A stretch of DNA of 64,000 bases from Candidatus Aenigmatarchaeota archaeon (GTDB lineage Archaea; Aenigmatarchaeota; Aenigmatarchaeia; PWEA01), in the NCBI GenBank assembly GCA_046539305.1, contig JBKHHE010000001.1, forward strand, positions 77,150 through 141,149. Direction: 5' to 3'. Positions 4,996 to 45,953 of this stretch are shown in pieces; within the stretch, counting starts at the first letter, position 1, and each line of letters begins with the position of its first letter. The translations under genes were made by a program, and so were the position numbers. Under the pieces are notes generated by a model. The model was not told where the DNA came from. It searched no databases and was given only the letters and a program-made list of their open reading frames with translations.

Positions 4996-5049
4996 AAAAA
5001 TCACCTGATACCTTGAGAAATTTACTCGGTACATTTAAATATTTTTCCT

Positions 5050-5532: not shown

Positions 5533-5536
5533 GGTA

Positions 5537-8237: not shown

Positions 8238-8240
8238 ACA

Positions 8241-8663: not shown

Positions 8664-8712
8664 ATAAGGAACATGGCTCCGAATAAATAAAAATCTTTGC
8701 AGGGAGCAGGTT

Positions 8713-29430: not shown

Positions 29431-29470
29431 CAAGAGCTTTAGAAGCAGGAATGGAAACCAGGTGAAGTAA

Positions 29471-29986: not shown

Positions 29987-30032
29987 AGCTTAAATATCTT
30001 ACAGATGAACTAAAACGTGGTGAAGCGACTAC

Positions 30033-30515: not shown

Positions 30516-30552
30516 ATATTAAAAGGTAAGCGATGATAAAATAAGTGGGAAG

Positions 30553-31116
30553 ATGAGTCCGGCACAGTTTCCAGGCGGAGCAACCGCAGACCTGTTAGGA
30601 GGGGAGTTCTTCGAATATGCGCTGCCCTGGCTACTGACCTTTGCAATAGTTTACGGGTTTCTGCAACACTACAAGGTACCGGAGTCCAAGTCGGCAAGAG
30701 GTGTAATTTCGATAGTCCTTGCCTTTTTTGTAATGCCCGCTGCTGCGCCTGTCATGTCTTTCCTCAGGGAAGTCGGCGCAGGTCTGGTTGTCATCGTTAC
30801 AGGCATAATATTTTTCCTGGTCCTGCTGGAGTTGACTAGGACCAAAAAACATCCAGGAGTTCAGGAACACCCACAGACAGGAGAGGAAATCGTACCAGAG
30901 GGTGCAAAAGGCGCAGATAGACAAAGCATAGTAGAGGCCCATCCCAAAACCTTTGGCGCTCTCGTGGTTATAATCCTAGTGGTTATACTCTGGGGAGCAG
31001 GGGGGTTTGAGATAATGGGACTGGGAGAGATTATACCAATGGTCAGCTGGCCCACGCTCTTTTTCCTGGCCGTGCTTGCGCTGGCCATCTGGTGGATGAT
31101 ATCGGAGAGTGAATAA
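30553..31116 (+). CDS. polytopic membrane protein, paralog 4 of tandem array
   Basis: 187 aa. The motifs are FEYALPWLLTFAIVYGFL, SARGVISIVLAF and LFFLAVLALAIWWMISESE. It shares an identical 18-nt stretch with paralog 3 and an identical 20-nt stretch with paralog 5. Confidence 0.65.
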   Translation: MSPAQFPGGATADLLGGEFFEYALPWLLTFAIVYGFLQHYKVPESKSARGVISIVLAFFVMPAAAPVMSFLREVGAGLVVIVTGIIFFLVLLELTRTKKHPGVQEHPQTGEEIVPEGAKGADRQSIVEAHPKTFGALVVIILVVILWGAGGFEIMGLGEIIPMVSWPTLFFLAVLALAIWWMISESE

Positions 31117-31683
31117 ATGACAGCAATTGGAATGCAGATGTATGAAGTTCCCGGGGATCTTGAAGGGATTTTTGGAGAGATAGGTGTAGAATTCTTCGCA
31201 TACGTTCTCCCGTGGCTCCTCACCTTTGCAATAGTTTACGGTATCTTATCCCATATTGGAAAAGACGGCCTTCCTGAAAGCAATCCTGCACGGGCAATAA
31301 TAGGAATAGTTCTGGCCTTTATAATAGCTCCTGCACTTTCGCCTTTTGTGCCGGCTTTAATGCAGTACTCGGCCGGATTTGTGATTCTCATCGCAGGGTT
31401 CCTGGTGTTTATTGTTTTACTGGAGGTATTCGGTATTAAGGCCAAAAAGCCTATAGTAGGCGACGAGGGTCCCACTGGCGAAAGTGAAGAGCTCTCCATA
31501 TTTGAAGAATACCCCAAGTTCTTCGCTTTCGTGATCGGCGTCCTGGCCTTGCTCGTATTCTTCGGTTCCGGGGCCTCAGAGGCTGCAGGGATAAACATAC
31601 CTTCGGGGATATCACAGAACTATCCGCTCCTGTTCTTCTTAGGATTTATGGTTCTTGTGGTCTGGTGGATGATCTCGGAGTGA
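31117..31683 (+). CDS. polytopic membrane protein, paralog 5 of tandem array
   Basis: 188 aa. The motifs are FAYVLPWLLTFAIVYGIL and LLFFLGFMVLVVWWMISE. Its ATG directly abuts the previous stop codon. Confidence 0.65.
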   Translation: MTAIGMQMYEVPGDLEGIFGEIGVEFFAYVLPWLLTFAIVYGILSHIGKDGLPESNPARAIIGIVLAFIIAPALSPFVPALMQYSAGFVILIAGFLVFIVLLEVFGIKAKKPIVGDEGPTGESEELSIFEEYPKFFAFVIGVLALLVFFGSGASEAAGINIPSGISQNYPLLFFLGFMVLVVWWMISE

Positions 31684-31703: not shown

Positions 31704-32609
31704 TCATTCTTCCAAAGCACTGGGACCTTTCTTTTGTTCCTCCTCCTCATTCCCCGGCCCCTCTATGTAGTCCTCGGGAGAAGAAGGAATGTCAGTCGAT
31801 GGGAGAGAAGACGATGTAGACGAAGCTCCTGGGGAAGTATCTGTAATTCTTCCTGTGCCTTGTTTCAGCTCTTTGACCACGCTAGAAAGAGAGTGAACGT
31901 TTTCGGTGAGCGCGGGAAGGAAGTCCTTGAAGGCCTTTTCAACCGAGCCAATTCTTGATTCAACGCTTTTGACATGAGAAAACGTTTTGTCCGCCTTCTC
32001 TTCAAGTCTTTCCCTCTCCTTTTCGTGTTTCTCATCAAGCTCTTTTACCTTCTTTTTGAGACTTTCTACATCTTCCCTTAGTTCCTCCCTCTCCTCCTCA
32101 AAATTATTGAAACGGTTTTCCACCGCGGTCCATTTCTCATCAATTATCTCCTCGATGAGCACCTCAAGCTCAATTACATCGTCCTCCGTCATCTCCCATA
32201 CATTCTCGTCGGAGGCGGTGCTTTCCTCAAACTGCTCAAAGGGATCAGGGCCGCTCCCTTTGCCTCCTCCGGAGGGGGAAGGAGGTGGTGCGATAAACCT
32301 TTCTTCAGCAGATTCGTCCCCTTCTCGTCGCCTCCCGGTGGAGGTATCCCCGCTGCGCGGTGGTGGAGACGGGGCCGCTGAAGGAGCCTCTCCCCTGGAG
32401 CCGGAAACTCTGTGTTTCAAAACCTTGTTCAAGCTTCTGTTTATCTGAGTATTTGAATAGCCTCTGGACTTCAGCTCATCTATTATCTCCTGCTCGGAGT
32501 AACCCTGAGAAGCCATTCTCTGGACTTCTTCCGTGGGTGATTCGGAGCGATCCGGCATGCCCCTGCCAGTTTTTTCCTCTTCTTCATTTCCTCCAAAGCC
32601 CAGAACCAT
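31704..32609 (-). CDS. coiled-coil protein with N-terminal helix-hairpin motif and P/S/G-rich linker (pilus-locus associated)
   Basis: 301 aa. It consists of QGYSEQEIIDELKSRGYSNTQINRSL, a low-complexity linker, and a long heptad-like C-terminal region that is loosely FlaC-like. Confidence 0.5.
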   Translation of the reverse strand: MVLGFGGNEEEEKTGRGMPDRSESPTEEVQRMASQGYSEQEIIDELKSRGYSNTQINRSLNKVLKHRVSGSRGEAPSAAPSPPPRSGDTSTGRRREGDESAEERFIAPPPSPSGGGKGSGPDPFEQFEESTASDENVWEMTEDDVIELEVLIEEIIDEKWTAVENRFNNFEEEREELREDVESLKKKVKELDEKHEKERERLEEKADKTFSHVKSVESRIGSVEKAFKDFLPALTENVHSLSSVVKELKQGTGRITDTSPGASSTSSSLPSTDIPSSPEDYIEGPGNEEEEQKKGPSALEE

Positions 32610-32611
32610 GT

Positions 32612-33013
32612 CTACCTATTCTCCTTTTGTATTTCATCTTTAATAAGGCTTTTCGCCTCCGTTTCTGTAAGAAATTCACTCTCCATGGGCGAGAGGAGGT
32701 CAACAAAATTTTCCAACTCCTCGAATTCATCTTTCCTGGGCGTATCTTCAAGTCTGTCTCTCATCTTGGACAGCTTGTTCTCGATCTTCATAACCCTAGT
32801 GGATATATCGTCTATCTTCTTCCTCAAATCTTTTCTCTCTTCCCTGCCTTCTTCCTCGGTATCCAACAGCTTTTCCTGGAAGGACTCGAGACTCGTCCTC
32901 AGGGATCTGTTTTCCTCCTCCAAGTCTCTTACGCGCCGGGAATTCTCGTTCATGCGTCTTATGAGCTCCTGAACCACTTCCTTGAGGTTCGAAGAGGAGT
33001 CGCCAAAGGCCAT
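32612..33013 (-). CDS. coiled-coil protein (pilus-locus associated)
   Basis: 133 aa and almost entirely charged heptad repeats. It is divergent from the ATPase gene and lies 2 nt upstream of the 31704 gene. Confidence 0.5.
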   Translation of the reverse strand: MAFGDSSSNLKEVVQELIRRMNENSRRVRDLEEENRSLRTSLESFQEKLLDTEEEGREERKDLRKKIDDISTRVMKIENKLSKMRDRLEDTPRKDEFEELENFVDLLSPMESEFLTETEAKSLIKDEIQKENR

Positions 33014-33112
33014 GATATCAATTTATTTTATTAGAGCTCTACTTAATAAAGTTATAAGTGAAACAGAGGCAGTCGAAAGCTTTAGAAAGCATCACATACA
33101 AATGTAAAAGCG

Positions 33113-35377
33113 GTGACCCAAATGCCTTGCGACTACGAGTATGACGAAGACGAGAAGAGTATAAACGTGGACTGTTCCGGATGTATCTACGGAAGCAGCG
33201 TGGCAGACTATGAGGTCTGCATGGCCAAGACTATAGACAAGATCCTTGAGGTAAAAGGCGTAGAGTCCATAGTTTTCGGCAACAGCCGCGAGTACGAATA
33301 TCCCTACGGGCAGACCAAGCTTCTTGTGGAAATAGCCGGTGTCCTTGAAAAGGTTATGAAGGACGAAGGCCTCCGAAAAATAGAACAGCTGGAGGTGCCC
33401 GACTGTGAAGAATATTTCCAGGAGAAATACTCTGAGCTGCAGGACCTGGCCCTGGGCAACCTGAGAAAGGACCCGATAGGCGCCTATATGAGCCTCAAGA
33501 GAAAGATAAGGCACCTTAGAGTAGAACTCAAAGAATCTGACGTCCCCCATTTGGAATGTAAAAGAACATACCTTGACGAGGTCCTCCTACCCATAAAGGA
33601 GCTTCTGGAGGAAACGGAAATGATACAGAAGGTCCAAGACAAGCTCTCCGGTCACCGCCCCGGAGAAAGGGACATATATCGGGAACTGTTCCACCCCACA
33701 GTAAGGCCAAATTTCATGCGAACCAAGTATATGAGACAGACTCCGGAGGAGGGTGGGATAACGGACAACTACTCCGCGGGAAGCTCCGAGGTCAGAATAT
33801 ACAATATCCCCGGAGAAACAAGGCCGCTCTACCACATCACGCCACCGGAGTTCAGGCTGGAAGAGGGAGAATATACTATACTGGATGCTGCACAGAGGTA
33901 CCTGAGTGAGCACAGACCAGAGACAACGGAGTTCGCGGAGTCCGAGCGCTCAAGAGAGGTCTTCGCATCGATAGGAAGGGACCTAATAAGGGATCTTGCG
34001 GAGGAGAAGGGTATGTCGCTGGACTCGGACCAGGAGGATCGGCTCACCTCAATACTCAGCAGGTATACAGGCGGACTGGGAGTACTGGAAGCAATGCTAG
34101 AGGACAAGAGGGTGGAAGACATATACGTCAATTCGCCTATAGGACGGAAGCCCATATTCATAAACCACGAAGAGTATGGTGAATGCAGGACCAATATAAT
34201 TCCCACGCAAGACGACGCTGAGAGCTGGGCCACGAAGCTGAGGCTGTCAAGCGGACGTCCGTTGGACGAGGCCAACCCCGTCCTGGATACCTCCATCGAC
34301 GTAGCCGGGGGAAGCGCGAGAATAACCATCATAGCTCCGACCCTCTCCCCCGAAGGCCTTGGATTCGCCATCAGAAGGCACAGAGAAGACCCATGGACCT
34401 ATCCACTATACCTGCAGCCGGATGTGAAATACTTCAACCCGCTGTTTGCGGGGCTGATGAGCTTCGTGATAGACGGGGGAAGAACCTTTCTGATAGGTGG
34501 GGGCAGAGGTTCCGGCAAAACCTCGCTCCTTGGGGCCTCGATGCTGGAGATGAAGAAGGACTGGCGTATTATTGTCAACGAGGATACGCTGGAACTGCCC
34601 GTGGGAAGGTTGAGAAACCTGAACTACGATATAGAGAGGCTGAAATCACGGTCTGTTATAACGCAGGTTGAGACGGAACTACCTGCATCCGAGGCGATAA
34701 GGACCGCCCTGCGCCTAGGAGACTCTGCACTAATAATAGGTGAGGTCAGAAGCAAGGAGGCGCAGGCCCTATACGAAGCAATGAGGATAGGTGCAATGGC
34801 AAAAACGGTTGCAGGAACAATCCATGGGGAGTCCGCGTATGGCCTATTTGACCGGGTCGTAAACGACCTCGATGTTCCCAAAACTTCCTTCAAGGCAACG
34901 GACCTGATAGTCATATGCAATAGGATAAAGAGTGCTTCCGGTCTCAGCGAGGTCAGAAGGGTGACCAGCGTCACCGAGGTAAGAAAGCACTGGAATGAGG
35001 ATCCGCGGGCAGAGGATGGTTTCGTTCCTCTCATGGAGTATTCCGCGGAGGAGGACCAGTTAAAGCCAACGGACACCCTCCTCAACGGCGAATCACAGGT
35101 CCTAAACCACATTTCTTCCCAGGTCAAAGAATGGGCCGGGAGATGGGATCGTGTCTGGGAGAACATAGAACTCCGGGGGAAAGTGAAGAAGACGATAATG
35201 GATTATGCCCTTGAAACGGGTAACAAAAAGCTTATGGAGGCTCCTTTCGTCGTTAAAAGCAACAGCCAGTTCCGCCTTATCACGGACGATGTACAGGAAG
35301 AAATGGGCTACGTGGATCCCGACGAAACCTACGAGAGGTGGGAGGAATGGTTGAAGGAGGAAATAAAAAACACCTGA
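33113..35377 (+). CDS. type II/IV secretion-family ATPase (archaeal PilB/FlaI-like) with long N-terminal extension
   Basis: Walker A is GGGRGSGKTSLLGA. It also has IIVNEDTLELP, the Walker B region ALIIGEVRSKEA and the His box GTIHGES. The N-terminus has a Cys cluster (PCDYEY...DCSGC...C). An alternative ATG start is at 33122. Confidence 0.85.
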   Translation: MTQMPCDYEYDEDEKSINVDCSGCIYGSSVADYEVCMAKTIDKILEVKGVESIVFGNSREYEYPYGQTKLLVEIAGVLEKVMKDEGLRKIEQLEVPDCEEYFQEKYSELQDLALGNLRKDPIGAYMSLKRKIRHLRVELKESDVPHLECKRTYLDEVLLPIKELLEETEMIQKVQDKLSGHRPGERDIYRELFHPTVRPNFMRTKYMRQTPEEGGITDNYSAGSSEVRIYNIPGETRPLYHITPPEFRLEEGEYTILDAAQRYLSEHRPETTEFAESERSREVFASIGRDLIRDLAEEKGMSLDSDQEDRLTSILSRYTGGLGVLEAMLEDKRVEDIYVNSPIGRKPIFINHEEYGECRTNIIPTQDDAESWATKLRLSSGRPLDEANPVLDTSIDVAGGSARITIIAPTLSPEGLGFAIRRHREDPWTYPLYLQPDVKYFNPLFAGLMSFVIDGGRTFLIGGGRGSGKTSLLGASMLEMKKDWRIIVNEDTLELPVGRLRNLNYDIERLKSRSVITQVETELPASEAIRTALRLGDSALIIGEVRSKEAQALYEAMRIGAMAKTVAGTIHGESAYGLFDRVVNDLDVPKTSFKATDLIVICNRIKSASGLSEVRRVTSVTEVRKHWNEDPRAEDGFVPLMEYSAEEDQLKPTDTLLNGESQVLNHISSQVKEWAGRWDRVWENIELRGKVKKTIMDYALETGNKKLMEAPFVVKSNSQFRLITDDVQEEMGYVDPDETYERWEEWLKEEIKNT

Positions 35378-35389
35378 CCGGGAGATCGG

Positions 35390-37477
35390 ATGACTGAAGA
35401 AGGGGACGAATCTGATGAGAAGAAAAGGGAGGAGCTCAGGAGACTGTTAGAGGAAGTGGAGGGGGAGGTAGACTTTTCTGCCGAAGAGGAGGAGAAAGCG
35501 ATAAGCCTGACGTCCAGGGAATACGAAACCTTCAGAGAGGAGGAAGAGAAACACCAGAAGAAAAGCCTCTACGAGAGGTTTTGTAACTACGCAGGAAAGA
35601 TCGCGGAGATAGAGCCGGGGGAAGAAAGAAAGGAAAAAATGCAGAAGGCCATAGACTTCGCGCACCTACAGATAACTCCGGAAGAGGCCTACAGTCTTGC
35701 CATTTTCTCAGGTATTGGCCTGATAATCGTAGCGTTTCTGCTCCTTATGCTTGGTATTTCGGGTATTGTTTTTACACTGTTCCTGGTTATTCTTTCCCTG
35801 GCAACAATCTACTTGCTTGTCCAACTGCCCGAATCACAGGCCAGGCTCTTCAGAGTCAAGGCCTCCAACGAGATAGTGATGGCCGTTATTTACATGGTAA
35901 TTTATATGCGCTTCACCCCGAACCTTGAGGGCGCAATACGCTTCGCTGCACAGCACCTGAAAGGCCCCCTATCACTGGACTTCAAAAAAATACTGTGGGA
36001 TATAGAAATGAGGAACTATCCCTCGGCCAAAGAGGCCCTCGTGGACTACCTCGACAAATGGGAGGACAACAAGGCCTTTGTCGAAGCCGTTCAGACGATA
36101 CAGAACTCCATGGAGCAGTCCACAGAAAGGAGGAAGTCCATGCTGGACGAGGCGGTGAACGCTATGATGTCAGGTTCTGAAGGAAAACTAAAAGAATACG
36201 CGAACTCCCTGAAACTTCCGATAATGATTATTCACATGATGGGTATAATGCTACCTATCATGGTGCTGGTGATGTTCCCGATAATACTGCTGATGCTCGA
36301 GGATACTGTGAACCCTCTTTTCCTCGTAATCGGTTACAACATTATTCTCCCTCTGATACTTTACTTCACGGGTAAAAGAACCCTGGAATACAGGCCGCTG
36401 GGCTTTTCCGCACCGGACCTCTCCATGCACCCGGATTATAAAGGCACAGGGAAAATCTCAATCCTTGGGCACGAGATAAAGATATGGCCAGTATCGTTAA
36501 TACTATCCCTATCCATTATAGCTACAGGAATCTGGCTCCTCATGACTTTCGGGGTCGACCCCCAGTCGAGGCTATACACATCCCTTGTAATCACCTGGGG
36601 CATAGCCCTGGGCCCCATTTCCTACTTTTTCCTGGACTCGAAACAAAAGCTCAAAATCAGGGAAAGAATAAACTCCCTGGAAGACGAATTTCATGAGGCG
36701 CTCTTCTCCCTGGGCAACCGCCTCTCACTGGGGAAACCCATAGAAAAGGCGATGGAAGATGCGGTCAAGAAAAACGAGGAACTGGAGATATCCAACCTCT
36801 TCCAGGGGGCGGTGCAAAACATGAAAGAAGGAGGGATGACCCTGAAAGGCTCTCTGTTCGACGAGAAGTTCGGTGCAATATGGAAATATCCGTCCAAGCT
36901 AATCAAGTCGGTTCTCCAGGTCGTGGTAAGAGCCACAGACAAAAGTGCGGAGATAGCATCCGTTACCACGATATCCATATCGAGGTACCTGAAACGGATG
37001 AAAGCCCTGGAAAAGGAAATGAAAGACTCGCTCTCCTCAGCCACGACCTCCATGCAGTTCCTTGGCTCCTTCCTCGGACCCCTTGTGGCTGGCGTTTCCG
37101 TCACAATGGCCGGGATAATGATAGAGATATTCATGAGCCTGGACACGGAGTTCCAGAAGCTCATGGTCGAGGGTGATATGCCCCAGGGAGTAGGTATGGC
37201 CGAGGGGTTAATGATGGGTGGGTGGGGATCCACCGGTGAGATGATCTCCATATACGTGATCCAGATAGTTGTGGGAATCTACGTGATCGAAACCGCCTAC
37301 CTCCTATCCATGCTCTCATCCGGGATAGAGAACGGACCCGGCGACAAGATCGCAAGAAGAAACACGGCTGCCCGGATCATTTTTATAGGGGTTTTGGTCT
37401 TTACTTTCTCTCTCCTGTTAACCTACACCATCTTCGGGACTATGCTACAAACCCTGATTGGTGGCGGCATGGCTTAA
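35390..37477 (+). CDS. FlaJ/TadC/PilC-like polytopic platform protein
   Basis: 695 aa. It has an acidic cytoplasmic N-terminus, then about 9 or more TM helices in two blocks separated by soluble domains. It lies immediately downstream of the ATPase. Confidence 0.7.
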   Translation: MTEEGDESDEKKREELRRLLEEVEGEVDFSAEEEEKAISLTSREYETFREEEEKHQKKSLYERFCNYAGKIAEIEPGEERKEKMQKAIDFAHLQITPEEAYSLAIFSGIGLIIVAFLLLMLGISGIVFTLFLVILSLATIYLLVQLPESQARLFRVKASNEIVMAVIYMVIYMRFTPNLEGAIRFAAQHLKGPLSLDFKKILWDIEMRNYPSAKEALVDYLDKWEDNKAFVEAVQTIQNSMEQSTERRKSMLDEAVNAMMSGSEGKLKEYANSLKLPIMIIHMMGIMLPIMVLVMFPIILLMLEDTVNPLFLVIGYNIILPLILYFTGKRTLEYRPLGFSAPDLSMHPDYKGTGKISILGHEIKIWPVSLILSLSIIATGIWLLMTFGVDPQSRLYTSLVITWGIALGPISYFFLDSKQKLKIRERINSLEDEFHEALFSLGNRLSLGKPIEKAMEDAVKKNEELEISNLFQGAVQNMKEGGMTLKGSLFDEKFGAIWKYPSKLIKSVLQVVVRATDKSAEIASVTTISISRYLKRMKALEKEMKDSLSSATTSMQFLGSFLGPLVAGVSVTMAGIMIEIFMSLDTEFQKLMVEGDMPQGVGMAEGLMMGGWGSTGEMISIYVIQIVVGIYVIETAYLLSMLSSGIENGPGDKIARRNTAARIIFIGVLVFTFSLLLTYTIFGTMLQTLIGGGMA

Positions 37478-37519
37478 AACCAGAAAGCTTAATAAAGAAG
37501 GAACAGCTAATACGTAAGT

Positions 37520-37660
37520 ATGAGGACCGTGATGATTTTCATTCTTATGTTTGTAATCTTCATAGTGATACTGTTCCTCTGGCTCCTCGACGTGGGACAG
37601 GTCCTCGACACCGTCAGAGGGACAATAGACGAGATATTCCTCTGGGAGGGGTGCTGCTAG
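37520..37660 (+). CDS. 46-aa single-TM mini-protein ending in Cys-Cys (below ORF-track cutoff)
   Basis: ATG 37520: MRTVMIFILMFVIFIVILFLWLLDVGQVLDTVRGTIDEIFLWEGCC*. It shares the G-x-[VL]-L-D tail motif with the three mini-pilins at 39.9-40.4 kb. Confidence 0.5.
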   Translation: MRTVMIFILMFVIFIVILFLWLLDVGQVLDTVRGTIDEIFLWEGCC

Positions 37661-37724
37661 TATGTTAATGTTATCGCCTCTCAATCTGTCTTCCGGGAAA
37701 GGGTTTCTGGGGGAGGTCGGACGA

Positions 37725-39269
37725 ATGCCATTGGACTTTCTTTTAAAGATGATAATCATATTAATCACAATGGCGGTCCTTGTGCCGGTTTTCACCGACC
37801 TTTCGAGCCTGGGCGGGCAGATGACCTGCAGAACTATATGCGAGATGAAACTGGATCCTGCCGCGTACAATATTATTGGAAAGGCAGCTAACGGTGTACT
37901 TGACGATTGGCATGAAGCCATGAACTGTCCCAACTGCGCCACGATGCTGAAGGACATGGACAATATCGAAAGTGGGGATGTTATATACGTGAGCATAAAT
38001 GCAGACGGGGAAGATATCTTCAATCAGGAACCAAGCCTCGAGACCTGGTGGTTTGACGAGACCGATGATGGCGAGGACGAGGAACCATGCCACATACGTG
38101 TCAACTGGGAAGATGCAGATGAGCCGGGGTTTGGGGATAAGATTTGGGATGGTATTAAACTTTTCTCGTCGCCATTGAGCTGGGAATACGAGAGATTAGC
38201 CTCGTTGCTTGAAGCGGCCGGCGTTGTCGACGACCCTCCGTATATTACCTCTACGATGGCCAGAGTAATGTCGGGGGAGGACGGAAGCATGGGTGAGTTC
38301 AAGGACACAGATGATTTAACGGGCGTTATAGACTTGATGGATCGCAGTGTAAATGAGACGCTTGAGACCATGGAAGTCCGCAGGAGCGCGGTGCTGAAGA
38401 AGCCATGTGAAGAATTTGAAGAGGAGGGAAAGTGTAAAGCTGGTGTCACCGAAACGATAGATGACGAGGAGGTCACCCTCAACTGCTTCTGGGTCGATAT
38501 AGACGGAGAAGAGTGCAGGCATCTGCCCGAGGGTGGTTTTGACGACATCCACGTCGACGAGGACACTTTCCGAGAACATGCAGAGAAGGTCACTGGGATG
38601 GATTACGAGGATATGGATGTCGAGGACTTCGAGGCGGAAAACATAGAAAATTTTGTGGAGGTTCAAAACAGTATTATTAAAGATGAGATCGAGGAAATAA
38701 CCGAGGATGAGCTGAGCTTCTTCGAAGAGATGACCAGAGACATTACGCAGCAGCAACGGGCGCTCGACACCCAAACCCTCCGGGCCGAAGAGGGTGAGTG
38801 CCTGGGAAGCTTCATGTTTAAAGAGGAGGATCCAGAGGACCGTTGTGAACGGAACGCCTGCCCTGATGATTTAGAAGATTGGCAGTGTGCTATCTATACG
38901 GAAAGGTTCAACATGAGTAAGTGGATAAACAATAAATGCGATGACGGGAAGGATAGTGGGGTCGATGAATATGATATCTGCGGTCTCGCACTTCCAAGCT
39001 CCGATACCAAAGACCTCGAGGAACAGGGACACCATGAGGAGTTACACCCTGAAGAAGCCTACCGGTGGATGCCACGAGGCGACCTGATCTGCGAGCCGGG
39101 CGAGGGGTGGCACATGTGCAACGCTAACGAATACGAGGAAGTTACTAAGGTTATTGAACTTGGAGAGGAAGATATAGATGTAAACCTGACCTGTTCCGGA
39201 CACGAGTGGCAGATGACCGAAGAGTTGCCAGAGGATGGCTCCGGACCTTCGGAGAACCATTCAGGATAG
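37725..39269 (+). CDS. large acidic Cys-containing extracellular protein with N-terminal signal anchor
   Basis: Start at ATG 37725 (MPLDFLLKMIIILITMAVLVPVF). It is extremely D/E-rich with many Cys. The 3' end overlaps the next ORF in another frame. Confidence 0.6.
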   Translation: MPLDFLLKMIIILITMAVLVPVFTDLSSLGGQMTCRTICEMKLDPAAYNIIGKAANGVLDDWHEAMNCPNCATMLKDMDNIESGDVIYVSINADGEDIFNQEPSLETWWFDETDDGEDEEPCHIRVNWEDADEPGFGDKIWDGIKLFSSPLSWEYERLASLLEAAGVVDDPPYITSTMARVMSGEDGSMGEFKDTDDLTGVIDLMDRSVNETLETMEVRRSAVLKKPCEEFEEEGKCKAGVTETIDDEEVTLNCFWVDIDGEECRHLPEGGFDDIHVDEDTFREHAEKVTGMDYEDMDVEDFEAENIENFVEVQNSIIKDEIEEITEDELSFFEEMTRDITQQQRALDTQTLRAEEGECLGSFMFKEEDPEDRCERNACPDDLEDWQCAIYTERFNMSKWINNKCDDGKDSGVDEYDICGLALPSSDTKDLEEQGHHEELHPEEAYRWMPRGDLICEPGEGWHMCNANEYEEVTKVIELGEEDIDVNLTCSGHEWQMTEELPEDGSGPSENHSG

Positions 39270-39841
39270 AGGCCCTGGATGAATTTGAATTCGGACTGGC
39301 GATGGAGAACAGGACCTTTGAGAAAGGTGAGACAGTCCATATAGACTATGAAACAGATGCCGACGGCCTGGAAATAACTGCAAAGAAAGAGCTTCCAGAT
39401 GGATCCGCAGAGGAAATAGACCTTCCCCACTCCTTCGAAGCAGAACAGATCGGGACCCATATAGTCGAGGCCGAGGCCGTGAAGAACGGTCACAAAGACG
39501 TATCCGACTCGGTCATGTTTTCTGTCATAGAAAGGAGTCCGGACCTTGACGGGGAAGGAGGAGAAGTTCCGGGGGAGGAAGAAGAACCAGGTATAGAGAT
39601 ACCGCTTGTAATACTGGCAGGGGTGATAGTCCTTCTCCTGTTCCTTTGGAGGAACAAAATCGGGTCGGAGGGTTTCTTCGAAGGGCCTGAGACAATAGGA
39701 TTAAGGGAAAGTAGGGTCGGACCGGAGCTCGAAACCTGGATAAAGGAGCAGTATAGAAGGGGCCACAGCCCTAAAAGAATCAAGGAAGAGCTGGAGAATG
39801 CAGGACGGGATCCCGAAGCAGTGGACGAGGTGCTTTCCTGA
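39206..39841 (+). CDS. Ig-like ectodomain + TM + cytoplasmic helix-hairpin tail; probably the C-terminal part of the upstream ORF (frameshift) or an independent gene from ATG 39302
   Basis: It has no signal of its own. The beta-rich segment (GTHIVEAEAVKNGHKDVSDSVMFSV) precedes the TM helix IPLVILAGVIVLLLFLW and the tail RGHSPKRIKEELENAGRDPEAVDEVLS. The ORF is open for 64 nt before the upstream stop. Confidence 0.5.
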   Translation: MADDRRVARGWLRTFGEPFRIEALDEFEFGLAMENRTFEKGETVHIDYETDADGLEITAKKELPDGSAEEIDLPHSFEAEQIGTHIVEAEAVKNGHKDVSDSVMFSVIERSPDLDGEGGEVPGEEEEPGIEIPLVILAGVIVLLLFLWRNKIGSEGFFEGPETIGLRESRVGPELETWIKEQYRRGHSPKRIKEELENAGRDPEAVDEVLS

Positions 39842-39919
39842 CCCCTCCTTAAAGGGTTACCCATCATATGGCCTCCTGTAATAATTAAGCTTAAAAGGCA
39901 GGGAACGTATATCTATCCT

Positions 39920-40117
39920 ATGGGAAAAACTTTCTCCCAAGACAGCGCATTCATTATGGAAGGACCAAAGGGTTCCCTCCCCCTGAAGTTCGTTGCTGTC
40001 ATAGTCATCATGCTCATAGCCCTCGTTGTGGTCATGATGATAATGGGTGGAGTTGAAGAAGGGGCCGATGAAGGCCTTGGAATATTGTCGGACACTATAG
40101 ACAGATTCACGCCGTGA
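39920..40117 (+). CDS. mini-pilin-like protein (class III signal)
   Basis: ...MEGPKG|SLPLKFVAVIVIMLIALVVVMMIMGG followed by the short acidic tail EEGADEGLGILSDTIDRFTP. An AT-rich box lies about 25 nt upstream of ATG 39920. An alternative start is at 39956. Confidence 0.6.
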   Translation: MGKTFSQDSAFIMEGPKGSLPLKFVAVIVIMLIALVVVMMIMGGVEEGADEGLGILSDTIDRFTP

Positions 40118-40121
40118 TAAA

Positions 40122-40259
40122 ATGAAAAAGGGTGTCGCAATAGGCGTCGTTTTTATAATCCTCATGTTTCTGATAGCTCTGGCAGTACTATTGACAGTCT
40201 TCATGACTGCGGAAGGCGGCCTCGAAGAGGCCGCAGGTGGTTTACTTGACCTCGTCTAA
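40122..40259 (+). CDS. 45-aa mini-pilin-like protein (below ORF-track cutoff)
   Basis: MKKG|VAIGVVFIILMFLIALAVLLTVFMTAEGGLEEAAGGLLDLV*. It has a K-G junction, a 23-aa hydrophobic helix and an acidic tail. Confidence 0.55.
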   Translation: MKKGVAIGVVFIILMFLIALAVLLTVFMTAEGGLEEAAGGLLDLV

Positions 40260-40425
40260 AGGAGTCACTTTTTTCGACCTGGAGACTACTGGAGGGAAGA
40301 TATTTGTAATCGTGGTGTTCCTCATAGCCCTGGCGTTTTTCCTCCTTTTCTTCCGGGAAAACATACAAACCATGATAGAGGAAACTACTGGAGAGCTGCT
40401 GGATGCGGACTGGTTTATGGGCTGA
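40246..40425 (+). CDS. mini-pilin-like protein
   Basis: TTG 40246 gives MTSSKG|VTFFDLETTGGKIFVIVVFLIALAFFLLFF...TGELLDADWFMG. The start is uncertain (GTG 40237 in the track). It overlaps the preceding gene. Confidence 0.45.
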   Translation: MTSSKGVTFFDLETTGGKIFVIVVFLIALAFFLLFFRENIQTMIEETTGELLDADWFMG

Positions 40426-40429
40426 TAAC

Positions 40430-40807
40430 ATGAAAACAAAAGGACAGAGTACCATGATGAAGTTCATAATAGGGATAATCCTAGCGGTCATCGTGGTCAT
40501 AGCTTTCGCACGGTTAATGTGGAGTTTTGATGTGGAGAAGGAGGCGCCAGGAAGCGCCCACGACGAATGTTTTGAGTTAACTTCCACGGAGACCAGCTGC
40601 AACGAGTTTTGTAATCAGAGGAACTCCAGCTGGACCTGCTCGACAGGCTGTGGGTTTGGCGCACAGGATGCTCAGGCAGTAGTTCATGGCAAGGGGGGCT
40701 GTGAAGGAGTGACGGCACTCCTCCTTTACGAGGACAACGCATGCACCCAAAGGTTAGAGGAAAAGAACATGAGGAAATCGGTCAAGTGCTGTTGTGAAAG
40801 TGAATGA
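40430..40807 (+). CDS. Cys-rich pilin-like protein (class III signal KGQ)
   Basis: MKTKGQ|STMMKFIIGIILAVIVVIAF. The ectodomain has 10 Cys and ends KCCCESE*. Confidence 0.65.
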   Translation: MKTKGQSTMMKFIIGIILAVIVVIAFARLMWSFDVEKEAPGSAHDECFELTSTETSCNEFCNQRNSSWTCSTGCGFGAQDAQAVVHGKGGCEGVTALLLYEDNACTQRLEEKNMRKSVKCCCESE

Positions 40808-40864
40808 TACTTTCACACCAACGCCCGGCGAGGCAGTCCTCTCTATAACGGCAATCATTTGACT

Positions 40865-41404
40865 ATGGAAACAGCAGAAGCTATCCCATCAACAAGACTG
40901 AAGTATATGGAGATTAGCGCTGATGAAGAAACAACCCTGATGGTAGAGTTTGACCGTAAAAATTTAAACCTCCCTGACGAATGTCTCTGTATGGACTCTC
41001 ATGGAGGAGCGATGCACTACGTGCTGCTTGCGGGAGTCGGAGGATTGATTCTGACGGCCGTCCTGCTCTCCGGTTACGGGTTAGTAGCTGGCAAGGCCGG
41101 TATGGGAATGGCACTGACCTCCGCCTCTCATATTGGCGGGGGGGCGGGAAGAGACATAAGCTTCATATTTTCTATCAACGAATCTGCAGAAATAGAAGGG
41201 GAGTTTCCGGACGAAGACTGCATCGTTCACCTGAAGGAGAGTCATACGACTGCTCGGAGTACTATACTGGATCAAACTGTGAACCAGACCTTTCTCTATC
41301 TTACAGAGGCCGAGAACCTTGACGAAGTGATAGAATGTGATGTGGACGAAACCAAGGAATACAAGATAACAAAGGAAGATGGGGTGGTAACCGTTGAAGC
41401 GTAA
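40865..41404 (+). CDS. single-TM protein of pilus locus
   Basis: An N-terminal region of about 50 aa is followed by the TM helix HYVLLAGVGGLILTAVLLSGYGLVAG and an acidic domain. The start is uncertain (the track uses TTG 40859). Confidence 0.45.
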   Translation: METAEAIPSTRLKYMEISADEETTLMVEFDRKNLNLPDECLCMDSHGGAMHYVLLAGVGGLILTAVLLSGYGLVAGKAGMGMALTSASHIGGGAGRDISFIFSINESAEIEGEFPDEDCIVHLKESHTTARSTILDQTVNQTFLYLTEAENLDEVIECDVDETKEYKITKEDGVVTVEA

Positions 41405-42209
41405 GGGGCAGGTCGAAAGCCCGTCGTGGTTGATAGGACCTCTGCTGATAATAGGTCTCTTCAGTATTTCCGTGGTTTTTATCGGCATCGCCTATAGCGA
41501 AACCGTCGCGAAAGTAGAAACCGGCGTCTCCGAGCTTGAAATCATGAATATGGAGAACAGGCTACTTTCATCGGAGAAATGTTTATCCACAGGAGAGCTG
41601 GGCGTCCTAGATAAAAACAGACTTGATGAGTTTAAAGAAAATAATTGCGACTGGGACCCTGCTAATCCCTGTGGACTGAGCGACTTTGAAGAGGGCGATA
41701 TAAGATGGGAATGTCCTGCGACTCCTTCCATCACCTACAGGGTTGAAGTCGAGGACCTTGAAACCGGAGAGGAGTGGATACTGGGCTCCGAACTTACGGA
41801 AAACTTGGAAGGAGAAAGGTTGAACGCTAGTTTTGAGTCCAAGAGGTCCGTGGCGATCAACACCAGCTCAGGGGTGAACCCAGGTAAGGCCACACTTTAC
41901 TTCCGAACGGCCCGGGAGGATCCCCTGCTCGCGGTGAGGAAACACGCTGCCAACGCTTGGGTCACGGGGAAAAGCAGAACGATAATTAAAAAGGAGGGGG
42001 ATAGCACATACATTGACTTCCCCGAGGAAGGGGTAATGAACCGTGGCCTGGGGGAGAACGTTTCTCATTGGAGACTACCCGCAAGGATCGGAGCAACAGG
42101 AGAAAAAATTAAATTCGTTCACACAGGCCCCGCCGTGGCCGGGGGAGAACGTTTATACGAGTTTAAAAGAGTGGAAGGTGAGATAGAAATAGATACGGAA
42201 GAGATCTAA
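41394..42209 (+). CDS. pilin-like protein (class III signal KGQ)
   Basis: The TTG start gives MKRKGQ|VESPSWLIGPLLIIGLFSISVVFIGIAY. 271 aa, with an acidic ectodomain. Confidence 0.6.
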   Translation: MKRKGQVESPSWLIGPLLIIGLFSISVVFIGIAYSETVAKVETGVSELEIMNMENRLLSSEKCLSTGELGVLDKNRLDEFKENNCDWDPANPCGLSDFEEGDIRWECPATPSITYRVEVEDLETGEEWILGSELTENLEGERLNASFESKRSVAINTSSGVNPGKATLYFRTAREDPLLAVRKHAANAWVTGKSRTIIKKEGDSTYIDFPEEGVMNRGLGENVSHWRLPARIGATGEKIKFVHTGPAVAGGERLYEFKRVEGEIEIDTEEI

Positions 42210-42220
42210 ACGTGATAAAA

Positions 42221-42712
42221 ATGAAAAAGGCCCAAGTTTTGATCATGGTGAACGTGGTATTTGCAGTAATCGCAGTGTTTTTCCTGATTATATTTTTAAG
42301 CGCCACAGGGTTCATGGAACAGCTGCCTGTTGTCGATTATCCCGAGCTAGAAATGCGGTTCGGGGAGCTGGTGGTGATTCCCAGAGAGGCTTCCGCCGAC
42401 ATCAACGCTTTTTTGAAGCTGTCCGAGAACGGAAACTCGATGAGAGAAGTGATAAGGGATTACCTGGTTTACGGGGAAGAGAAGGATTTGGATACACTTG
42501 AAGAAAATCTAAATAAACTTTTCACGATGAAAGAAGCTGTGCTGACAATCGGTGGTGAAAGTATAGAAAACGACGTAGAAGTGGATGTCTCCGAGGAAAG
42601 GGAAAAGGTCAGCGCGGAGGCGTCAAGAATCATCGCCTTGCCCGGAGGAAAGACAAAGAAAATAACTCTAAAAATAACACAGAGGCGGCCCGAATTTGGA
42701 GGTGGCGAATAA
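42221..42712 (+). CDS. pilin-like protein
   Basis: MKKAQ|VLIMVNVVFAVIAVFFLIIFL. 163 aa from ATG 42221. Confidence 0.55.
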   Translation: MKKAQVLIMVNVVFAVIAVFFLIIFLSATGFMEQLPVVDYPELEMRFGELVVIPREASADINAFLKLSENGNSMREVIRDYLVYGEEKDLDTLEENLNKLFTMKEAVLTIGGESIENDVEVDVSEEREKVSAEASRIIALPGGKTKKITLKITQRRPEFGGGE

Positions 42713-43864
42713 ATGATAGTTAAACAAAAGGAAGGAGCAGGAGCAGGTGCCGTTGTGGTGGTTGCCGCAGCGATTATAATTGTACTCAGTATTTTTATCT
42801 GGAACTTTATGACCGTGGCTATGGAGTTCGAGAGCCAGAGAGAGGTGACCCCCCTTACAGAGGCCAAGGGCCAGTTCGACAACCTCGACCACTTCACGAA
42901 CAGTTCCTTGTTCTTCTCGGAACACCGGGGAACCCTGAAAAACACTAACCAGGAGTTGGCAGGCACGGAGGAAATGACCTGGTGGGACAAAGGCGAGGAC
43001 AGGACTCCGGATGAGGACGAGTTCAGAGAGAACCTGACAGACGAAATATCTTTCTGGTGGGCCCGGGACTACTTCTCCGATTCAGATCAGAGGAATCTGA
43101 AAGAAGTGGACGTAAGGATAGATGATTACGAGCCTGTGGACGAAGGTTTTGTACTAAATTCGACCGCGGTCCCCGAAGCCATTGCCGAAGTGGAGGAGAG
43201 AAAAATAAAGGTCTACAACGAGAAGAACTACAGCCACGAGATCGACCTGAGACCTTTCCTTCTGAGGGAGGAGGGGGACGAGCTGACCGACAACATGGTC
43301 GACGAGGCCCTTGAACCTCTCTGGGAGGAGTTCGAGGGGGACGCAACAAAGGACGAGAGCACGGGGGAAAACACAGAGTGTGGAGATTGGCCCAGCTGGC
43401 CAAGTGCGAATCCTTCAACTGAGAGCAGTGTGAAAGGAAACTTAAACGACAAACTTGAAGATATATCCGGAGACATTCAAGGAGAATACGGCCCCGAGGA
43501 GCTTGGATGGTCCCTGAACATACAAGAGCTTGAGGAATTCAGTTCCAGCTCCGATGTAGTTAGTCAGGACGAAGACGACAGTGGTGATCCTTGTACCTGT
43601 AAAAACACAACCAGCGGCGATGAGATGTCCTGTGGAAACTGTGGAGAGATAGAAGAGTGTGAGGTAGAGGAAAGAATCCATACAAGGGAAAGGGACTTCG
43701 AGTACGACTACGAGGCGGCCCTGGAGATCGAGGCCGAGATAGAGGATGGAAACGAAGACTACGAGGTCTTGACCACCGACGGAGACGAGGTGCCTCTGGT
43801 GCTCCAGTTTTTGATAGATCCTGTGAGGTTCGACACCAAAGAAGGCAATCCCTACGAGGCCTGA
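42713..43864 (+). CDS. large acidic pilin-like/pilus-associated protein
   Basis: MIVKQKEGAGAGAVVVVAAAIIIVLSIFIW N-terminal helix. 383 aa, very D/E-rich, with a Cys cluster near the C-terminus. Its ATG abuts the previous stop. Confidence 0.55.
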   Translation: MIVKQKEGAGAGAVVVVAAAIIIVLSIFIWNFMTVAMEFESQREVTPLTEAKGQFDNLDHFTNSSLFFSEHRGTLKNTNQELAGTEEMTWWDKGEDRTPDEDEFRENLTDEISFWWARDYFSDSDQRNLKEVDVRIDDYEPVDEGFVLNSTAVPEAIAEVEERKIKVYNEKNYSHEIDLRPFLLREEGDELTDNMVDEALEPLWEEFEGDATKDESTGENTECGDWPSWPSANPSTESSVKGNLNDKLEDISGDIQGEYGPEELGWSLNIQELEEFSSSSDVVSQDEDDSGDPCTCKNTTSGDEMSCGNCGEIEECEVEERIHTRERDFEYDYEAALEIEAEIEDGNEDYEVLTTDGDEVPLVLQFLIDPVRFDTKEGNPYEA

Positions 43865-43915
43865 AATCCAATAATATTTAATAGCTCACAACAAAAAATA
43901 AACCGTGGTTCCGAG

Positions 43916-44449
43916 ATGAAGGAAAGGGGAGTAGCTTTATCGATTTCAACGCTGGTCGTTCTCGTTGCATTACTCGTAGTTATAGGTGGGGCAGCTGCTT
44001 TTCTGATCAGAGGTGAGGAATCGATGATAGATCCAGAATCCCAAATCTACAACCTGACGGAGTCGATCTCCCCGAGGTTCGCTGACATGATGTGGGGTGA
44101 AAAGGAGGAAGACCCAGACTGTGTAGAATGTCAAGACGACGATCATTGTCCTTCTAGGAATTACGAATGTAACGATGACAACTTATGCATAATTCCAGAA
44201 GATCAGCAGGTGGAGGCTGGACTTGGTTGTCAACCGGAGGGTGATTATGGATGTTACGGGGCTTGTGAACCATATTCTCGGGAAGGGACTTGTTATCATG
44301 GAAGTCAATGTAAAAATTTTGGAACTAGTGCTGACCCTGATTGCAGATGTGAGTGGGAGGAGGAAGATAATGATAGACCTTGTTGCCCTGCCGATGATGA
44401 AGTACCTGACTGTACGGGAGCTGGGTGGGACGGCTGCAAAACTATATAA
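43916..44449 (+). CDS. Cys-rich pilin-like protein (class III signal)
   Basis: MKERG|VALSISTLVVLVALLVVIGGAAAFLI. The ectodomain carries many Cys (CVECQDDDHCPSRNYECNDDNLC...). It has its own AT-rich box about 30 nt upstream. Confidence 0.65.
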   Translation: MKERGVALSISTLVVLVALLVVIGGAAAFLIRGEESMIDPESQIYNLTESISPRFADMMWGEKEEDPDCVECQDDDHCPSRNYECNDDNLCIIPEDQQVEAGLGCQPEGDYGCYGACEPYSREGTCYHGSQCKNFGTSADPDCRCEWEEEDNDRPCCPADDEVPDCTGAGWDGCKTI

Positions 44450-44545
44450 AATAAATAAAAATATCAATCCGTGAAATAAAAAAAGTATATTGCTATTAAC
44501 ACTCGTCCTCTAAACCTTAAAAACCAGGAAAAGTATATCCTTTGT

Positions 44546-44830
44546 ATGCTGCGAGAAAACGGGAAAGGGGACATATCCCTTTCAATCCGCACCGTTATGC
44601 TTATGTCTCTTGGGTTAATTGTCTTGATTGGGCTTATCATGATATTCACCGGAGGCCTTGATATCGGACTGGACCTGACCGACTGTGATGCCGCAATCGA
44701 GAAAAACTGCGGTACGTACGTGGCCAACGGTTGCTGCGACGAGGGCAACAGCTGCACCGAGGTCGTGGCTGATTTCGACCTTCCTGATAAGTGCACCGAA
44801 CCCAGTGACTGGTCGGAAAGGTGCTGCTAG
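44546..44830 (+). CDS. Cys-rich pilin-like protein (class III signal)
   Basis: MLRENGKG|DISLSIRTVMLMSLGLIVLIGLIMIFTGGLDIG. It has 8 Cys and ends SERCC*. Confidence 0.65.
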   Translation: MLRENGKGDISLSIRTVMLMSLGLIVLIGLIMIFTGGLDIGLDLTDCDAAIEKNCGTYVANGCCDEGNSCTEVVADFDLPDKCTEPSDWSERCC

Positions 44831-45113: not shown

Positions 45114-45953
45114 TTATTCGAAGTCCATGCAGGTCCTTCCGTAGTGGAAGAGATATTCGTGGGCGTAACCCGCGTACCTCCCGAAGTAGTCTCTCATTTT
45201 TTCCGAGGTTTCGTCGTAGTTTCTGCCGTTCAGTTCTGGATACTTCTCCTGGATGACTTTCCACATCCAGGTGTCTATGGGAAACGCCTGGAGGAAGTCC
45301 AGGGAAAACAAAAGCACGCAGTCCGCGACCTTGTCTCCCACGCCCTGGAGTTTCATCAACTCCTGCTTGGCTTCTTCGTACTTCATTTTCTTAATATTTT
45401 CTGTCCTGATTTCGTTCTCGGCTACCATCTCCGAGGTCCGCTTTACATAATCGGCCCTGTATCCCAGGCCTAGATCCTTTAGCTCCTCCAGCGGGACTTT
45501 TGATAGCCTTTGGGGTTCAGGAAACTGATGGTAGATTTCACCTTCAAGCTCCAGATTTTTCCCGTGTCTCTCGGCAAGCTGATCCTGAATTTCCTTGATC
45601 CGTGGAATCTGCATCTGCGCCGAGGTTATGAAAGAGATCAGGCAGTGGAAGAACTCGTCGTTTATTATTCTGAGGCCCCTGTTTTCCTGTATAGCTTGAG
45701 AAACAAAATTGTCCTTTGATATTTCTTCGCAAATTTCCTCCAGGGGGTCACCAATACGGAGAACTTCAGCTGGATCTATCCTGTTGCCATAGTTTTCGTA
45801 GAAGAGTTTGTCATCTTCCTGCCAGACCTTGAGCAATCCACCGTTCCGGATGGTGTAGTATTTTTCTCCGTCCCTGTGCCAGAAGAAGGTCTGCCCGCAC
45901 TCCAGCGTTTTTTGCAGGTCGAACGGTTCTTCAAGTTTTATTTTTCTCGGCAT
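45114..45953 (-). CDS. ogg: 8-oxoguanine DNA glycosylase / HhH-GPD N-glycosylase-lyase
   Basis: LMKLQGVGDKVADCVLLFSL is the HhH-GPD hallmark, followed by FPIDTWM. 279 aa. Confidence 0.8.
   Translation of the reverse strand: MPRKIKLEEPFDLQKTLECGQTFFWHRDGEKYYTIRNGGLLKVWQEDDKLFYENYGNRIDPAEVLRIGDPLEEICEEISKDNFVSQAIQENRGLRIINDEFFHCLISFITSAQMQIPRIKEIQDQLAERHGKNLELEGEIYHQFPEPQRLSKVPLEELKDLGLGYRADYVKRTSEMVAENEIRTENIKKMKYEEAKQELMKLQGVGDKVADCVLLFSLDFLQAFPIDTWMWKVIQEKYPELNGRNYDETSEKMRDYFGRYAGYAHEYLFHYGRTCMDFE

Follow-up and report, generated by a model that had tools for sequence, protein, structure and literature searches.

A type IV pilus-like locus with a run of class III signal proteins in a halophilic Aenigmatarchaeota archaeon

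What does an archaeon build with a secretion ATPase, a membrane platform and a run of small, often Cys-rich proteins? This question is raised by a locus at positions 33113–44830 of a stretch of DNA (64,000 nucleotides, hereafter the window, whose numbering is used throughout) from contig JBKHHE010000001.1 of a Candidatus Aenigmatarchaeota archaeon. An initial annotation, made from the letters alone, had taken the locus for a type IV pilus-like surface filament, or an apparatus for adhesion, and not for an archaellum. Our analysis supported this reading: the ATPase resembled GspE2 and CpaF above FlaI, no archaellum genes were found at the locus, class III signals were enriched in the run, and an A24 prepilin peptidase was located in the genome. 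The locus probably codes for machinery that assembles a type IV filament, as already described for cluster-2 DPANN archaea.

The ATPase open reading frame (ORF) spans 33113–35377 on the forward strand. Its probable start is the ATG at 33122, because homologs begin with MPCDYEY; the protein (33122–35377) thus has 751 aa rather than the 754 aa annotated initially, and has a FlaI/GspE2-like core that is extended at both the N- and the C-terminus. Walker A (GSGKTS), Asp box (EDTLEL), Walker B (IIGEVR) and His box (TIHGES) motifs could all be read in the sequence, as the initial annotation had noted for Walker A and the Asp and His boxes, and the Pfam family T2SSE (PF00437) matched above its cutoff (E 1.4e-12). 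The platform gene (35390–37477, forward strand) begins 13 nt past the ATPase stop codon. Its 695-aa product is a TadC/FlaJ-like polytopic protein, as annotated, with about eight hydrophobic segments and two T2SSF stretches (PF00482, 28.2 bits versus a cutoff of 25.2 bits); a hidden Markov model (HMM) search with it against PDB sequences returned nothing. Of the family checks that had been proposed, T2SSE and T2SSF therefore both gave matches above their cutoffs, and DUF361 matched no protein of the locus. The two genes are the only ATPase–platform pair in the window and, as judged by these family matches, encode a hexameric ATPase of the PilB/GspE/FlaI family and the adjoining PilC/TadC/FlaJ-family platform that characterize the type IV pilus superfamily.

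Model scores of the ATPase bear on which member of this superfamily is present. The FlaI equivalog model was its top NCBIfam match by E-value (1.9e-36), and FlaJ-like platforms are homologous to TadC, as would be expected if the locus encoded an archaellum for motility. However, the FlaI score was only 126 bits against a 550-bit cutoff. Among solved structures, Archaeoglobus fulgidus GspE2 (PDB 2OAP) matched best (97 bits, residues 279–623) and was followed by CpaF (PDB 8RKD, 69 bits), so that both outscored FlaI (62 bits); VirB11 came last (35 bits). Family searches detected no archaellin, FlaF, FlaG or FlaH in any locus protein, in line with the initial annotation, and the substrates are Cys-rich orphans and mini-proteins. 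An archaellum is disfavoured by both model scores and gene content, and we give it next to no credence. The next NCBIfam match was the TadA model TIGR03819 (109 bits versus a cutoff of 373 bits, E 2.8e-31), and weaker matches were obtained to BasE (E 3.9e-11), ComGA (E 5e-8) and VirB11/TrbB. The last two, which reflect a shared ATPase family, could point to a pilus for DNA uptake or other nucleic acid transfer, in which the class III proteins would serve as pseudopilins of the competence type, and a small-genome symbiont might import DNA. But ComGA reached 32 bits against a cutoff of 300 bits, no DNA-binding, ComEC-like or nuclease genes lie at the locus, and Cys-rich hypervariable ectodomains suggest recognition of surfaces rather than of DNA. 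We rejected this explanation on model scores and gene content and regard it as very improbable.

Using the ATPase as a query, we retrieved 73 related loci. The closest ones (69–81% identity) came from Candidatus Aenigmatarchaeota metagenome-assembled genomes (MAGs) of hypersaline sediments and mats; the five closest genomes (L001–L005) were used for identity comparison of the locus and its neighbours, and 8 kb fetched from relatives were used for class III counts. The ATPase is 76–81% identical in the closest relatives and occurs at full length in Aenigmat-, Woese- and Nanoarchaeota; the platform is 54–58% identical in close relatives. The first 278 residues of the ATPase were unmatched by any solved ATPase. 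Because GspE2 has 92 residues ahead of its aligned part, the net extra length is about 190 residues. The extension is conserved over its whole length in 55 full-length homologs belonging to the three groups, and the conserved motifs include REYEY..QT, DPIGAY and YH..PPEF. The initial annotation had described about 300 aa with a Cys cluster; the extension is indeed present, whereas the unmatched part is 278 aa and its Cys residues are only partly conserved among the 55 homologs (C21 75%, C36 45%, C24 39% and C6 20%). The structure prediction proposed at that time gave a confident AlphaFold2 model (52-sequence alignment; predicted local distance difference test score, pLDDT, 86.9; predicted TM-score, pTM, 0.69), in which a bundle of helices is predicted together with two further units, one small and alpha/beta, the other rich in beta structure. 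Foldseek found no significant fold match to this model in the PDB (best E 0.21).

Two coiled-coil proteins (CCPs) adjoin the ATPase gene and are transcribed divergently from it. The larger one (31704–32609, reverse strand, 301 aa) has an N-terminal helix-hairpin motif, GYSEQEIIDEL...GY, which was kept in its orthologs from 34 loci; it matched generic coiled-coil families, including a weak Nup88 match (E 1.8e-4). The smaller one (32612–33013, reverse strand, 133 aa) matched coiled-coil families only, and its orthologs were found in 32 loci, with 47–60% identity in close relatives. The arrangement thus contains coiled-coil proteins beside an ATPase and a TadC-like platform, the predicted gene content of the CCP–CpaF–TadC loci of cluster-2 DPANN. 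The helix-hairpin motif (G-Y/H-S..E-I-I..E-L...G-Y....I) recurs on the cytoplasmic C-terminal tail of the protein encoded at 39206, and it also tails two large Cys-rich, C-terminally anchored Woesearchaeota proteins (L032 13144–16266 and 17147–18850, both reverse strand). It may be a shared cytoplasmic docking module.

Downstream of the platform, thirteen ORFs fill 37520–44830, all on the forward strand and with gaps of at most 183 nt; the uninterrupted same-strand run described initially is real. We scanned for class III signals with a FlaFind-like pattern of our own rather than with a published predictor ([KRDE][GA], followed by a 16-residue window with a mean hydropathy of at least 1.9). 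The pattern was positive in 10 of 37 stop-to-stop segments of the run versus 12 of 822 elsewhere in the window (odds ratio 25, p 3e-9), so the class III prediction that had been suggested as a check did return sites, with a 25-fold enrichment in odds. Eight ORFs were clear (starting at 39920, 40122, 40430, 41394, 42221, 42713, 43916 and 44546), and three were ambiguous: 37662, in which the helix begins 12 residues past GKG; 40246, whose orthologs lack the K-G; and 40991 (MDSHGG|A). The remaining two are not pilin-like: 37520 encodes a bare helix with no signal, and 39206 encodes an Ig-like segment, a central transmembrane helix and a cytoplasmic tail. The count of pilin-like genes is thus 8–11, below the 12 or more claimed initially, and all N-termini quoted in support of that claim exist (MKTKGQ|S at 40430, MKRKGQ|V at 41394, MKKG|V at 40122, MKERG|V at 43916, NGKG|D at 44546, PKG|S at 39920 and MKKAQ|V at 42221). 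At the level of motifs, the run is predicted to encode class III-signal substrates, as expected of the type IV pilus superfamily.

A prepilin peptidase is needed to complete this picture, and the initial annotation had recognized none. None is encoded within the window, but one lies about 2–3 kb before its start and about 35 kb from the ATPase gene. We reached it by walking off the window via the diphthamide-synthesis gene at 733–1662 to a contig that overlaps window positions 1–5875 at 99.97% identity. There, 7863–8921 (reverse strand) of contig L074 encodes a 352-aa protein that matched Peptidase_A24 (PF01478, 49.5 bits versus a cutoff of 26.5 bits) and keeps both Asp motifs, the first as GVYDLKTTEIPD (YDLKT..IPD) and the GxGD motif as WGGGDAK. 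The search outside the window thus succeeded, and the position of the gene just beyond the window explains its apparent lack. As judged by its sequence, the genome has an A24-family prepilin peptidase, a further hallmark of the type IV pilus superfamily. Separately, window positions 1665–2411 (reverse strand) encode a rhomboid-family intramembrane protease, recognized by its GASGA and H motifs and, on the identical contig, by a match to Pfam Rhomboid; it overlaps the 3' end of a PPDK-like gene call by 65 nt. It was considered as a prepilin peptidase candidate with five transmembrane segments and rejected, as it is not of the A24 family.

The clear class III proteins include two very short ones. 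Mini-pilin A (39920–40117, 65 aa, GPKG|S, about 47 aa when mature) and mini-pilin B (40122–40259, 45 aa, MKKG|V, 41 aa when mature) both carry class III signals and, in mature form, would consist of a helix and a short acidic, GG-linked tail. Positional orthologs of A have 57–60 aa in L001 and L003–L005, and those of B have 52–65 aa in relatives. They are followed by mini-protein C (40246–40425, about 59 aa, a single transmembrane segment), whose orthologs lack a class III site. A second copy of type C (37520–37660) encodes a 46-aa single-helix protein that has no K/R-G signal, ends in CC and is weakly similar to the 48-aa type C proteins of relatives.

Two longer class III proteins are conserved. 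One, of 271 aa (41394–42209, MKRKG|Q), has orthologs in L001 and L003–L005, and its family counted 45 representatives among 1.84 billion proteins. Its AlphaFold2 model (pLDDT 84.3, pTM 0.78) predicted a 49-residue N-terminal helix (residues 11–59) and a beta head, the 'lollipop' layout of pilins. The other (42221–42712, 163 aa, MKKA|Q) has no Cys, and its positional ortholog in L001 (21629–22096) was found at E 8.5e-5 in a small database. Within the 271-aa family, the acidic 497-aa member P0017 has an inserted N-acetylmuramoyl-L-alanine amidase domain (Amidase_3, E 8.8e-55), which hints that the module can carry a cell-wall hydrolase.

The other class III proteins are Cys-rich or acidic orphans. 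The 125-aa protein (40430–40807, MKTKG|Q, 10 Cys) ends in KCCCESE and weakly matched a 218-aa, 14-Cys protein of L004. The 383-aa protein (42713–43864, KQKEG|A, 6 Cys) is large and acidic (Asp plus Glu fraction of the ectodomain 0.29), and no homolog was found in the fetched related loci. The 177-aa protein (43916–44449, MKERG|V, 16 Cys) is both Cys-rich and acidic, and a search of 5.8 billion protein clusters returned no homolog. The locus closes with a gene (44546–44830) for a 94-aa Cys-rich protein (NGKG|D, 8 Cys) that ends in RCC. One further protein, of 137 aa (40991–41404), has an N-terminal helix after MDSHGG and an AT-rich box about 21–33 nt upstream of its gene.

Positions 37662–39269, the first large gene of the run, encode a 535-aa acidic protein with 18 Cys and an N-terminal anchor with an atypical class III site. 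Positions 39206–39841 encode the non-pilin protein with an Ig-like segment, a transmembrane helix and the CCP-type motif on its cytoplasmic tail; this protein lacks a signal peptide. The two ORFs overlap by 64 nt (39206–39269) in the −1 frame. A fused product would resemble the L032 surface proteins mentioned above, with a signal, a Cys-rich ectodomain, a transmembrane helix and a tail motif, and the pair may be a split gene rather than a pilin gene and a separate gene. A sequencing error at the junction was rejected, as contigs of four runs lacked an indel, and a programmed −1 frameshift was unlikely, as no slippery heptamer was seen in 39206–39269. The population was almost clonal over 17 kb, with two hot spots (39025–39144 and 43986–44052). 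In the first, within the 535-aa gene, two population alleles (about 45:55) differ by four substitutions and a compensating +1/−1 indel pair. In the second, the helix-coding part of the 177-aa gene is polymorphic at 43986–44014, with fourteen differences in 29 nt and contig breaks.

Gene order was kept in Aenigmatarchaeota: five membrane protein paralogs come first, then the two divergent CCPs, the ATPase and the platform, and last a class III array. In array-bearing relatives, the downstream region has 3–9 strict class III ORFs on the plus strand versus 0–1 on the minus strand in most of them (up to 4 in one). The relatives carry at least nine class III genes in the 8 kb fetched, and the pilin set, which had been called unusually large, is normal for the lineage rather than oversized. 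In comparison with L001–L005, neighbour genes with a match were about 36–84% identical, whereas pilin-like genes were at most 30% identical or undetectable. When the pilin-like proteins of the window were searched against the 73 related loci by tblastn and iterated HMMs, only the 271-aa family matched at E <= 1e-4, and weak positional matches needed a small database. The backbone that survived this divergence consists of mini-proteins A (57–65 aa), B (45–65 aa) and C (48–62 aa) in the same order, then Cys-rich proteins, the 271-aa family and the 163-aa family. In the closest relative (L001 14394–18245), three paralogous Cys-rich proteins (363, 451 and 384 aa; shared motifs such as AGCYCGV..R.GKY.H and YAPVVC.S) come first after the platform; no similarity to them was detected in the 535-aa protein of the window. 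A 480-aa pilin-like protein of L001 carries GGLVG-type repeats.

These parts can be arranged in a proposed mechanism. Once the precursors had inserted into the membrane, the A24 peptidase would cleave behind K/R-G and so release the short basic peptide. The ATPase, a hexamer docked on the platform, would then pull the hydrophobic helices from the membrane to form a polymerized surface fibre. For its shaft, the best candidates are mini-pilins A and B, and the conserved 271-aa and 163-aa proteins may act as minor or priming pilins. The orphan acidic, disulfide-rich proteins may serve as variable adhesins in contact with a host or surface. A cytoplasmic scaffold or regulator is probably formed by the ATPase N-extension and the CCPs.

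The same substrates could instead be displayed or secreted by a bindosome- or pseudopilus-like structure, a short membrane-anchored assembly in which diverse class III proteins expose binding or enzymatic ectodomains, comparable to BasEF with the Sulfolobus sugar-binding proteins. The many unrelated substrates with large ectodomains, the weak BasE match of the ATPase, the amidase insertion in one member of the 271-aa family, by which the module could carry an enzyme, and the lack of a classic major-pilin signature among the locus proteins would all agree with this explanation. However, two conserved, Flp-sized mini-pilins resemble shaft subunits, the ATPase scored far higher on FlaI, TadA and GspE2 than on BasE, and no solute-binding protein domains were detected in the locus proteins. 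Display is the main rival of a filament, and we consider it unlikely.

Several observations weigh against a filament. The pilin-like proteins matched no known pilin family by sequence (Pfam and NCBIfam including DUF361, and for the 271-aa family also an HMM search of PDB sequences), and the 271-aa model matched no solved pilin (Foldseek versus PDB, best E 0.004, TM-score 0.11; the HMM search against PDB sequences gave none). Five of the thirteen downstream ORFs are not clear class III proteins, and the 535-aa protein may belong, as the N-terminal portion, to a split surface protein with a C-terminal anchor rather than being a pilin. The core without an adjacent pilin array occurs in many Woese- and Nanoarchaeota loci, among them that of the cultured Nanobdellota strain YN1. 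We found no RNA runs containing the locus; the filament is predicted from its genes, and so is its cleavage step. With these points taken into account, a type IV filament assembly machine remains probable.

The composition of the substrates reflects both the organism and the locus. The source organism is a halophilic member of the Aenigmatarchaeota (DPANN), as indicated by the ATPase-retrieved relatives, the metagenome habitats and the proteome composition. DNA runs containing the window are hypersaline-lake and microbial-mat metagenomes, and outside the locus, ORFs of 200 aa or more had a median Asp plus Glu (D+E) fraction of 0.186 and a Lys plus Arg (K+R) fraction of 0.134. Because of the habitats of the relatives, the hypersaline source runs and the acidic proteome, we conclude that the organism is a salt-in halophile of the DPANN group, which bears out the small-genome archaeon guessed initially. 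This lifestyle explains much of the acidity of the ectodomains, whose D+E fraction in the four most acidic proteins (0.25–0.29 versus the 0.186 baseline, with a low K+R fraction of 0.05–0.07) mostly follows the halophile baseline. The initial annotation had reported 25–35% D+E and 8–20 Cys; the acidity was overstated, and the cysteines were confirmed, with 18, 16, 10 and 8 Cys in the four Cys-rich locus proteins. Cys made up 3.7–14% of these proteins, whereas elsewhere the median was 0.81% and the highest value 2.6%. All members from the window have an even number of Cys, as have 46 of the 51 class III ORFs of relatives that contain any (p 2e-9), which suggests paired extracellular disulfides.

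The arrangement of promoter-like boxes was analysed with the pattern GCTTWAWAA, allowing one mismatch. A box, GCTTTAGAA (33079–33087, forward strand), begins 34 nt before the GTG at 33113 and 43 nt before the ATG at 33122. Boxes GCTTAAAAG and CCTTAAAAA (at 39889 and 44515) begin 31 nt before 39920 and 44546, respectively, and a box at 37487 begins 33 nt before the 37520 start. TATA-like boxes had been described before 39920, 43916 and 44546; the first and the last were confirmed, and the one before 43916 is weaker and further upstream. The internal genes of the run instead carry GGTGA/GGAGG-type sites. The pattern was not over-represented in the whole window (50 matches versus 48 expected), so the argument for promoters rests on box position only. 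If transcription starts about 26 nt past the centre of a TATA box, transcripts from the boxed starts would be leaderless or nearly leaderless, in agreement with the initial annotation.

Several neighbouring genes complete the picture. Upstream of the CCPs, five tandem paralogs of no known family (28999–31683, forward strand) encode membrane proteins of 143–188 aa with 4–5 transmembrane segments. They are mutually 24–42% identical, had no Pfam or NCBIfam match, and have orthologs at the same position in 17–22 related loci. The next gene past the end of the locus encodes an OGG-type DNA glycosylase (45114–45953, reverse strand). Further downstream, an orphan pilin-like gene (55775–56119, reverse strand; 114 aa, MASGKG|I, 6 Cys) is a paralog of the 44546 gene, and a search of a 5.8-billion-cluster protein collection found only the protein itself. 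A 230-aa class III-like protein (7545–8237, forward strand, MKKG|A) with no Pfam family is a possible extra substrate.

DPANN archaea rely on physical contact with a host, and few of the contact molecules are known; this type of locus is the most conserved candidate. The parts list given here sorts, gene by gene, the likely shaft, conserved minor subunits, variable adhesins and non-pilins. New in it are a conserved trio of 45–65 aa mini-proteins, including two Flp-sized mini-pilins, a confidently modelled, DPANN-wide N-extension of the ATPase for which the predicted fold has no known structural relative, and a pilin-shaped AlphaFold2 model for the conserved 271-aa family. The parts list and the N-extension provide concrete targets in cultured relatives. 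Cultured Nanobdellota YN1 has an attachment organelle whose protein make-up is not established (PMC11420986). Its locus (AP031373; L059 8134–13932) contains two coiled-coil genes and encodes a 747-aa ATPase, a 669-aa platform and a membrane protein of 133 aa with 6 Cys, with housekeeping genes, not a pilin array, on its downstream side; the ATPase is 42% identical to that of the window. A tentative proposal, which we hold to be rather doubtful, is that the DPANN-wide core (two CCPs, an ATPase with a long N-terminus and a TadC-like platform) assembles the filament that runs between cells in the 'attachment organelle', a structure revealed by cryo-tomography in the cultured Nanobdellota YN1 and Nanobdella aerobiophila, and that in Aenigmatarchaeota the adjacent array supplies a mini-pilin shaft, 271-aa and 163-aa primers, and interchangeable disulfide-rich orphans as host-specific tips. 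Because YN1 keeps the same core, this idea is testable in a cultured system.

Comparison with known systems places the locus among kinds that are already in the literature, and as a discovery it is incremental. Bacterial Tad/Flp pili consist of a CpaF/TadA ATPase, a TadB/C platform and Flp pilins, and the Methanococcus Epd pilus has a short major pilin. The window locus is like the Tad/Flp system in its CpaF-related ATPase (PDB 8RKD, 69 bits; TadA model, E 2.8e-31), its TadC-like platform and its very short pilin candidates, and the mini-pilins (41–47 aa when mature) are comparable in size to Flp pilins and to the short Methanococcus major pilin. It differs in lacking a secretin and other bacterial Tad parts and in having an ATPase that is about 250 aa longer; in addition, TIGR03819 scored 109 bits against 373 bits, and the mini-pilins have neither an Flp Pfam match nor the G|xxxxEY motif, so it is not a Tad/Flp pilus proper.

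In episymbiotic Saccharibacteria, ultrasmall host-dependent cells with several pilin genes attach to their hosts via type IV pili, as shown experimentally (PMC9894109, PMC11623550). This is a functional analogy: these are bacterial type IVa pili with PilB and PilT, evolutionarily distant from the locus described here, the function of which we infer. Subclade 4F of Makarova, Koonin and Albers (2016) comprises ATPases with an extra, often Cys-rich N-terminal domain and a coiled-coil partner, frequently with an S-layer-like, C-terminally anchored protein; the clade also occurs in nanoarchaea, in which pilins could not be found (PMC4858521). The likeness to it is one of descriptive traits only, namely an additional domain at the N-terminus, a partner of coiled-coil type and occurrence in nanoarchaea. 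Unlike in subclade 4F, PilA-family major pilins (arCOG02981, arCOG10216) were not recognized at the locus, and the Cys of the N-domain are only partly conserved. Makarova, Wolf and Koonin (2019, Fig. 2A) described DPANN 'dark matter' islands where, behind FlaI and TadC, there are signal-bearing proteins unlike known pilins, which they read as fast-evolving pilins (PMC6393860). The window shares with these islands the ATPase and TadC followed by many unrecognizable signal-bearing proteins; the islands were described in general terms with no per-gene analysis, and the halophilic lineage and the Cys-rich families were not covered.

Another close parallel is the pair of conserved type IV pilus-like loci with coiled-coil proteins (CCP–CpaF–TadC) of cluster-2 DPANN (Hamm et al., 2024, Nat Commun, Fig. 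4; PMC11291902). Such loci were reported for Aenigmarchaeota, Woese-, Pace-, Nano- and Nanohaloarchaeota, and several of their proteins were detected in the proteome of Candidatus Nanohaloarchaeum antarcticus (PMC11291902). The window locus resembles them in that two coiled-coil proteins, one with a weak nucleoporin-type match such as that study also noted, adjoin the ATPase and the TadC-like platform; the likeness is by description. In line with that study (PMC11291902), a role in host contact is plausible. Beyond its description go the class III array, the mini-protein trio, the five membrane protein paralogs and the N-extension of the ATPase.

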